In this document: one piece after another, positions 19,301 to 19,672 of the stretch
Layout: each line of letters opens with the position of its first letter
How positions within the stretch are numbered: position 1 is the stretch's first letter
DNA from: an uncultured Lachnospiraceae bacterium
GTDB taxonomy: Bacteria; Bacillota; Clostridia; Oscillospirales; CAG-272
Direction: 5' to 3'
Length of the DNA stretch: 64,000 nucleotides
Assembly: GCA_964582375.1 (NCBI GenBank)
Contig: CAZORL010000003.1
Coordinates: 15,289 to 79,288, forward strand
Translations under genes and position numbers: made by a program
The notes under the pieces: generated by a model
What the model was told of the DNA's origin: nothing
Databases searched by the model: none
The model's input: only the letters and a program-made list of their open reading frames with translations

Positions 19301-19672
19301 ATGGACGACAATAATGAATTCGAAATGCAGACCGTCGATCTTTTGAATAAATTTGGCGTTCCGAAGGAGCTTGAGGGATACGAGTATTTGAAACAAGCTA
19401 TCGTTTTCACTTGCAGAGAGGCTGTCATAATAAGCTCAGTAACAAAAGTACTGTATCCAACGCTTGCGAAGATCTTTAATGTAACTCCGTCGCACATTGA
19501 GCATGAGATCCGTCACGCTATCGAGATCACATGGGACGAAAGCGATATGAGAGTCTTAAATTCATTTTTCGGATTCATCGTTCGCAACAGCAAGGGAAGA
19601 CCAACAAACAGTGAGTTTATAGCGACAGTTGCCGATGAACTTCGTATCATGAACGACTACAGAATAAAGTGA
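19301..19672 (+). CDS. Stand-alone Spo0A C-terminal (DNA-binding effector) domain protein, no receiver domain
   Basis: 123 aa. VTKVLYPTLAKIFNVTPSHIEHEIRHAIEITW and RPTNSEFIATVADELRI match the Spo0A_C helix-turn-helix and sigma-activation regions as I recall them from B. subtilis Spo0A. Confidence 0.85.
   Translation: MDDNNEFEMQTVDLLNKFGVPKELEGYEYLKQAIVFTCREAVIISSVTKVLYPTLAKIFNVTPSHIEHEIRHAIEITWDESDMRVLNSFFGFIVRNSKGRPTNSEFIATVADELRIMNDYRIK

Follow-up and report, generated by a model that had tools for sequence, protein, structure and literature searches.

A natural receiver-less Spo0A effector-domain protein with a changed recognition helix in uncultured Lachnospiraceae

Spo0A is the textbook developmental master switch, gated by phosphorylation. 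Here we describe a gene for a stand-alone Spo0A effector domain (Spo0A_C), lacking the receiver (REC) domain, in a 64,000-nucleotide stretch of an uncultured Lachnospiraceae bacterium (assembly GCA_964582375.1, contig CAZORL010000003.1, positions 15,289 to 79,288 of the forward strand), referred to below as the window. Spo0A proteins without the receiver can be engineered and also occur in phages. The engineered forms (the isolated DNA-binding domain and sad67-type deletions) are missing the inhibitory receiver, as is the protein described here, and the isolated DNA-binding domain needs no phosphorylation to bind its targets (PMC3485338). Such phosphorylation independence of receiver-less Spo0A was taken as established in the original prediction, an earlier reading of this DNA. 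In these constructs, however, the recognition helix and the specificity for 0A boxes are those of the wild type, whereas in the present protein the helix is changed. Among natural forms, the spo0A homologs reported from phages of the human gut retain only the effector domain, and it was suggested that they act independently of host signals (Schwartz 2023, mBio, PMC10294663). The Pfam family of this domain, PF08769, is enriched in mobile elements of gut Firmicutes (Jiang et al. 2019, PMC6907783). The novelty that the original prediction implied for a receiver-less Spo0A is thus overstated, as such proteins were already known from gut phages and had likewise been proposed to be independent of the phosphorelay (PMC10294663); its remark that no functional work was known agrees with our literature search, which found no functional study of receiver-less paralogs. 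Lastly, extra spo0A genes have been described in C. thermocellum (Clo1313_0637), in Clostridiales genomes with two copies and in Anaerostipes hadrus with three, their functions not being established. These are likewise additional Spo0A-derived regulators beside a primary Spo0A, but they appear to be full length from the descriptions in the two papers cited for them, and phosphorylation could still control them.

The gene in question is the following:

19301..19672, plus strand: Spo0A_C gene (open reading frame, Pfam PF08769 match, alignment to PDB 1FC3/1LQ1, fold match, purifying selection)

The open reading frame (ORF) begins with ATG and encodes 123 amino acids, and the sequence blocks quoted for it originally were exact. 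We found that the protein matches PF08769 (Spo0A_C) with E=7.6e-34 and 116.3 bits against a Pfam cutoff of 25, and that the alignment spans model positions 3-104 of 104, that is, the full domain. No match to Response_reg was obtained in Pfam, and a tblastn search with two REC domains as queries detected no receiver remnant anywhere in the window, which holds a single Spo0A_C copy. The two profile searches had been proposed as a check in the original prediction, and both they and the tblastn result agree with its statement that there is no receiver domain. When compared with the NCBIfam Spo0A equivalog TIGR02875, the protein scored 125.6 bits, below the cutoff of 200, with the alignment confined to positions 145-258 of 262 (the C-terminal 114 positions); an N-terminal REC domain with a phospho-acceptor aspartate is missing, and so is the canonical recognition helix, as described below. 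Alignment to PDB 1LQ1 and 1FC3 gave E-values of 1e-29 and 3e-30, respectively, and showed that the B. subtilis Spo0A blocks used for the earlier comparison were correct. The AlphaFold model (pLDDT, the predicted local distance difference test score, of 87.9) has six helices and superimposes on 1FC3/1LQ1 with template-modelling (TM) scores of 0.81-0.93 and a root-mean-square deviation of 1.4-2.0 A, in keeping with the six-helix helix-turn-helix (HTH) fold; apart from these two structures, no PDB fold was matched at E<1. The 123-amino-acid protein is therefore an intact Spo0A effector domain that occurs naturally without a receiver and, having no phospho-acceptor domain, it cannot be controlled by the phosphorelay.

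The recognition helix of this protein, SHIEHEIRHAIE (residues 64-75), sets it apart from other members of the family. Numbering the domain as in B. subtilis by the 1LQ1 alignment, we found that R211, R214 and A215 are replaced by H, H and E/K (R211H, R214H, A215E/K) throughout a small clade made up of the window protein and its close orthologs, whose helix reads SH[IV]EH[EK]IR[HR]AIE, whereas the canonical helix is present in each of the 127 other homologs retrieved. In a sample of canonical Spo0A proteins (n=34), R211 and R214 are kept in 33/34 and A215 in 34/34. These are positions 2, 5 and 6 of the second HTH helix, and from helix-turn-helix geometry they would lie on the major-groove face; R214 is presumably base-contacting. 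For the DNA, the open literature states only that positions G2, C4 and G5 of the 0A box are contacted. The HEIRH within the window helix resembles an HEXXH motif, but it is not kept in the clade (HKIRH, HEIRR), and we attribute it to chance.

The divergence extends beyond the helix. Against a set of 66 full-length Spo0A proteins, taken as representatives of 50%-identity clusters, 16 positions that are conserved in at least 90% of the set are replaced in every clade member:

Positions 162 to 211: H162N/D, A168K/N, H169E/D, I170L, K171E/Q, R177K, T207V, R211H
Positions 214 to 246: R214H, A215E/K, A223T, R226E, G227S, Y238F, T239I, K246R

The net charge of the domain is -1 to -2 in the clade vs about +3 in canonical proteins, and the isoelectric point (pI) is about 5.9 vs a median of 9.4. 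Other features have been retained, namely S210, E213 and R217, the PTNSEFIA loop, F236, G237 and V240, and A257, D258 and L260. Within the helix, S210, H211, E213, H214 and R217 are invariant across the clade, and residues 78-116, running from helix E to helix F, are identical in the sampled members except for three single-sequence substitutions. In B. subtilis, mutations at positions 236, 240 and 257 affect transcription activation. The A257V substitution has been described for Spo0A and acts in the C-terminal helix (PMC9195935). In summary, the clade shares with canonical Spo0A the effector fold, 42-54% sequence identity, the HTH scaffold and the retained residues just listed; it differs in having no receiver, in falling short of TIGR02875, in R211H, R214H, A215E, R226E, G227S and the acidic pI, in reading GVPK(E/D)L(E/Q)GY where the canonical proteins have GVPAHIKGY, and in gene neighborhood, as the canonical gene adjoins spoIVB while the clade gene follows an LtaS-family gene.

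We then considered whether this arrangement is conserved, for which two further features are needed:

17082..19280, plus strand: gene for a sulfatase/LtaS-family membrane enzyme (Pfam Sulfatase, E=5.6e-35)
19289..19292, plus strand: ribosome-binding site GAGG of the Spo0A_C gene, 8 nt before the ATG

The same LtaS-family/Spo0A_C gene pair was present in 10 other loci (L001-L005, L007-L011), comprising nine metagenome contigs and one Lachnospiraceae metagenome-assembled genome (MAG), with Spo0A_C proteins 73-100% identical to that of the window; a survey of relatives for this pair had been suggested originally, and the pair proved to be kept in all 10. Four independent contigs from Logan, the assemblies of public sequencing runs in the Sequence Read Archive (SRA), encode the identical protein in the same gene order, five further contigs have this order with proteins 73-78% identical (P0006, P0007), and the MAG (CAZMPO01, uncultured Lachnospiraceae) carries an 89%-identical copy with gene order unchanged. 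The sequence GAGGCAT(C/A)AAAAATG leading into the Spo0A_C start codon is identical in the four orthologous lineages compared. Pairwise omega values of 0.06-0.19 indicate purifying selection, and pN/pS was 0.18 against the most distant ortholog. At 73% amino acid identity, Spo0A_C is the fastest-evolving protein of the neighborhood, the others being 78-97% identical, and its N-terminal half evolves 2.7x faster than its C-terminal half (pN 0.20 vs 0.075). A word-index search recovered the seven clade members as the only proteins more than 54% identical to the window protein. The clade was seen only in Logan assemblies and NCBI MAGs, and a degenerate DNA pattern for its helix found no match in IMG/VR or in the metagenomes of the Joint Genome Institute (JGI). 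The clade appears to be narrow, at about genus level, within uncultured Lachnospiraceae carrying sporulation genes.

Taken together, the best explanation, to which we give about an even chance, is that the gene is chromosomal and vertically inherited and that its product is a re-specified offshoot of Spo0A, predicted from its sequence to be a DNA-binding regulator of changed specificity. The new recognition-helix residues do not vary among clade members, although the N-terminal half keeps changing, which favors such a regulator, since a DNA surface that had fallen into disuse should drift as well. The part of the domain that contacts the sigma factor and the neighboring subunit (residues 78-116) is nearly identical across the sampled members. 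Under the re-specification reading, the protein would still be a small DNA-binding transcription regulator, its operator would differ from the consensus 0A box TGTCGAA, and it would not be a constitutive mimic of phosphorylated Spo0A (Spo0A~P); its activity would be set by its amount, tied to transcription of the LtaS-family gene. Several observations weigh against this reading. Four to five basic residues are gone (K171, R211, R214 and R226 throughout, and K195 in two lineages), and their loss together with the acidic pI could mean that DNA binding has been lost rather than re-specified. The DNA contact of R211 and R214 is a presumption based on helix position. Near the gene, no candidate operator occurred repeatedly, and the only conspicuous conserved inverted repeat (17066-17098) contains a 7-mer that is not enriched (8 vs 8.06 expected). 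Moreover, at four JGI loci encoding distant LtaS-family homologs, 35-38% identical to the enzyme of the window, no Spo0A_C gene lies beside the enzyme gene.

Alternatively, the protein may no longer bind DNA and may act through protein contacts, by titrating the sigma-A/sigma-H contact surface of RNA polymerase, by capping the tandem-dimer interface of Spo0A~P or by binding the receiver of unphosphorylated Spo0A, in each case as an anti-activator or modulator. The main argument for this explanation is the loss of basic residues and the pI of about 5.9. In addition, the strictest conservation falls on residues 78-116, the canonical counterpart of which holds the sigma-A activating region and the helix of A257V (PMC9195935). 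We nevertheless consider it unlikely, given that S210, H211, E213, H214 and R217 have stayed invariant despite the drift of the N-terminal half. In other DNA-binding proteins, moreover, histidine is able to recognize guanine.

A second alternative is the one originally put forward, namely that the protein, needing no phosphorylation, recognizes canonical 0A boxes and tunes entry into sporulation, either by activating promoters that depend on Spo0A or by competing with Spo0A~P. The full Spo0A_C fold, the retention of S210, E213 and R217 together with much of the activation/dimer region, the ability of isolated Spo0A DNA-binding domains to bind their targets unphosphorylated (PMC3485338) and the presence of sporulation genes in the host are all consistent with it. 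However, R211, R214 and A215, each kept in at least 33 of the 34 canonical proteins, are here H, H and E/K, and the net positive charge of the domain is reduced. The window shows no enrichment of TGTCGAA (20 occurrences vs 15.8 +/- 4.2 expected), and the motif is absent from the non-coding sequence around the gene. These findings, together with the loss of K171 and R226, weaken the case for action at 0A boxes, which we regard as doubtful, while the independence from the phosphorelay on which it was built stands.

As to origin, the gene might be a receiver-less spo0A of a phage or other mobile element that was domesticated and fixed in the chromosome, an origin that would fit each of the mechanisms considered so far. 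Gut phages commonly carry receiver-less Spo0A_C genes, relatives being encoded on 291 IMG/VR contigs and one receiver-less gene being part of a temperate phage's early operon; the window protein matches phrog_24603 (E=6.2e-15), and the literature cited above (PMC10294663 and PMC6907783) points the same way. Against this, its nearest relatives by distance are canonical cellular C-domains (0.41-0.46), the phage copies being at 0.55 or more, and neither integrase nor phage genes occur in the roughly 20 kb around the gene (12.3-29.3 kb). Furthermore, the locus is syntenic across four lineages at a dS of about 1 and shows no GC anomaly. A phage origin is therefore possible but not favored, and we rate it as quite improbable.

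That the ORF is an assembly or frameshift artefact, or the decaying remnant of a full-length spo0A, is essentially excluded: although split spo0A genes do exist (P0124 and P0030, each with a REC ORF and a Spo0A_C ORF adjoining spoIVB) and a decayed REC remnant lies upstream of another stand-alone copy (P0033), the DNA upstream of the window gene is an intact, unrelated 2.2-kb gene without REC similarity, the identical arrangement recurs in the 10 other independent loci, the orthologs share the ribosome-binding site and omega stays under 0.2, so that the earlier claim that this is not the 3′ half of a disrupted spo0A is well founded.

The split and decaying genes were of interest in their own right. 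In three loci (4663-5441 in L019 and L020, 994-1757 in L021), spo0A is divided into overlapping or abutting receiver and effector ORFs beside spoIVB. The P0124 split form was listed in 82 collection blocks, on contigs of up to 650 kb, and may be a real and widespread frameshifted or two-piece spo0A of a common gut species rather than a sequencing error. P0033 (4490-5384 in L017) is a stand-alone Spo0A_C protein of 127 amino acids with the canonical helix, encoded after rluB, dacB and ytfJ. In the 500 nt upstream of it, a remnant of the receiver beta-3 strand (LPDLIVLDYWISEADCVAMF) is present in a frame with stop codons, and from its sequence this locus looks like a receiver domain in decay.

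We also compared the clade with the receiver-less proteins of phages. Many of the relatives on the 291 IMG/VR viral contigs are stand-alone ORFs of 123-133 amino acids, and the phage truncated spo0A (phrog_24603) resembles the clade gene in encoding a stand-alone effector domain of about 125 amino acids without a receiver. The clade gene differs in being chromosomal, with no phage genes in the stretch from 12.3 to 29.3 kb of the window, in encoding H211 and H214 in all members, and in the greater distance of the clade to the phage copies (at least 0.55) than to cellular Spo0A (0.41). In the phage copies R211, R214 and R217 are kept in 12/12 and A215 in 8/12, and by sequence it is these proteins that are natural candidates for phosphorelay-independent binding to 0A boxes. 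The temperate-phage gene mentioned above (L066, 5965-6348, uncultivated virus genome 3300045988_035182) encodes 127 amino acids with the canonical helix and corresponds to the truncated phage spo0A of Schwartz 2023. It directly follows an Ant anti-repressor within the early operon, opposite a CI-like repressor and in the lysis-lysogeny switch region; the phage also encodes an endolysin, a tail fibre, RecT and a recombination directionality factor (RDF). About a dozen loci are similar to it (L039, L057-L060, L068-L076, L083-L090). By contrast, 13 matching "Bacteriophage sp." records, tried as further stand-alone copies, were rejected, since all of them carry full-length REC+Spo0A_C genes on UNVERIFIED virome scaffolds. 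The genes on five "UNVERIFIED: Bacteriophage sp." scaffolds (L012-L016: MT835737, MT835715, MT835504, MT835718, MT835781) are full-length REC+Spo0A_C and may represent either bacterial DNA in virome preparations or full-length spo0A carried by phages. A search of the plasmid database for stand-alone Spo0A_C returned only canonical spo0A on large replicons.

Other receiver-less relatives contain several effector domains. In an exhaustive phmmer search that returned 8031 related cluster representatives, the top scores belonged to proteins with 2-4 tandem Spo0A_C domains and no receiver (P0135-P0148, P0173, P0182), for example one of 454 amino acids with four domains. They resemble the clade in lacking a receiver and in having diversified recognition helices, each domain with a different non-canonical one, and one domain of P0136 has E-H at positions 213-214. 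They differ in being multi-domain, whereas the clade protein has a single domain, and at 29-44% identity to the window protein they are below the canonical proteins. In a neighbor-joining tree (without bootstrap support), the clade was placed beside the N-terminal domains of P0138, P0147 and P0173. The contigs that encode the tandem proteins, at about 1.3 kb, are too short to provide genomic context, and we found no description of such proteins in the literature searched. We tentatively suggest a broader scenario, which is less probable than not, in which the Spo0A effector domain has radiated into an unrecognised family of phosphorylation-independent regulators comprising stand-alone phage proteins, proteins with 2-4 tandem domains and chromosomal single-domain proteins. 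The clade would be a chromosomally fixed branch of it in which the helix was re-specified (R211H, R214H) toward a new regulon, possibly including co-expressed envelope or teichoic-acid-type genes, and which would act in parallel with or in opposition to Spo0A at sporulation entry.

The gene immediately upstream was examined with respect to its relationship to Spo0A_C. The 732-amino-acid ORF is intact and its stop codon lies 20 nt before the Spo0A_C ATG, as originally predicted; this short gap indicates that the two genes are probably co-transcribed. Its designation as LtaS-like needs to be qualified: the protein scored 25.5 bits against a cutoff of 970 for the LtaS equivalog NF053595, and on this basis it is a member of the LtaS family (Sulfatase superfamily only) and not an LtaS ortholog. 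As the pairing is absent at the distant homologs, it may be a historical accident rather than functional coupling with the LtaS-family enzyme. The start of this gene probably lies near 17124-17133, after the conserved sequence AAAGGAGGAG, and not at the TTG at 17082, judging from the reading frame, which is conserved across the orthologs only from AAAGGAGGAG onward and is broken by ortholog indels upstream of it. No ATG, GTG or TTG is well spaced from AAAGGAGGAG, a conserved Shine-Dalgarno sequence, the in-frame codons between 17082 and 17135 being ATC, TTC, ATA and ATA, and the gene may have a non-canonical start codon.

The leader of this gene contains a further element:

17066..17098, plus strand: hairpin GCGACGGGAT-N13-ATCCCGTCGC between the AP_endonuc_2 and LtaS-family genes, followed by the conserved AAAGGAGGAG

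The hairpin is perfect, with 10-bp arms (dG -29.4 kcal/mol, z -5.4), and occurs once in the window. Across four orthologous loci its arms are invariant and its loop is variable. The AP_endonuc_2/LtaS-family intergenic stretch is 76-82% identical to that of ortholog locus L007 vs 39-56% for other intergenic stretches, and a locus-wide identity profile places the conservation of the leader at the level of coding DNA, clearly above other intergenic DNA. The hairpin lacks the adjacent U-tract of a textbook terminator, and it may act as a partial terminator, as an operator or in RNA stability. Because GTCG is present in the arms, they were considered as a variant operator, but this was rejected because CCGTCGC is found 8 times in the window against 8.06 expected.

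The remaining features of the locus are as follows:

15189-15217, plus strand: promoter-like site TTGACT-17-TATAAT (promoter scan)
15229-15331, plus strand: tetrahydrofolate (THF) riboswitch (Rfam RF01831, 83.7 bits vs a gathering score of 36)
15368-16174, plus strand: folT-like gene for an energy-coupling factor (ECF) S-component, downstream of the THF riboswitch
19744..19772, plus strand: promoter-like site TTGACA-17-TAAAAT for rlmD (promoter scan, 11/12 matches, TG extension)
19795-21153, plus strand: rlmD (RlmD equivalog TIGR00479, 373 bits)

The promoter-like site, the THF riboswitch and the folT-like, AP_endonuc_2, LtaS-family and Spo0A_C genes follow one another in this order on the same strand, Spo0A_C being the last. 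Transcription from the promoter-like site ahead of the THF riboswitch is a candidate for reaching Spo0A_C. On its 3′ side, the Spo0A_C transcription unit of this genome is bounded by the promoter-like site of rlmD. The wider neighborhood is devoted to envelope-glycan biosynthesis (GtrA, GT2, PMT_2, GH2, DegT, Bac_transf, a hexapeptide transferase, Wzz and a tyrosine-kinase-like ATPase).

The window also provides information on the host. Intact spoIIIAE and spoIIIAH are encoded at 98-2946 (plus strand), with two ORFs between them in the AF/AG positions that have no Pfam match, and intact ORFs for yqfC (YabP family) and yqfD are found at 56497-57908 (minus strand), upstream of phoH-ybeY-era-recO. 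These genes place the host in a lineage with the core sporulation machinery. Because Spo0A accompanies such sporulation gene sets, a canonical spo0A is expected elsewhere in the genome, of which the Spo0A_C gene would most likely be a paralog. The term paralog used in the original prediction is therefore plausible, with the canonical partner gene itself being a prediction.

What is new here is a chromosomal, stably inherited receiver-less Spo0A with a changed helix, the concept of a receiver-less Spo0A being known from phages. Natural Spo0A copies without the phosphorylation gate show how a lineage, or its phages, can bypass or rewire a master switch. In this clade, DNA-reading residues that are near-invariant across the sampled Spo0A of Bacilli, Clostridia and phages have given way to others, which have since stayed fixed. 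Until the protein is expressed or the organism cultured, the practical impact is modest. A protein that has lost DNA binding would represent a novel type of modulator, acting on Spo0A or RNA polymerase at the protein level. If it does bind DNA, the clade would constitute a natural experiment on the encoding of Spo0A specificity, and may give gut Lachnospiraceae a second output for decisions related to sporulation.

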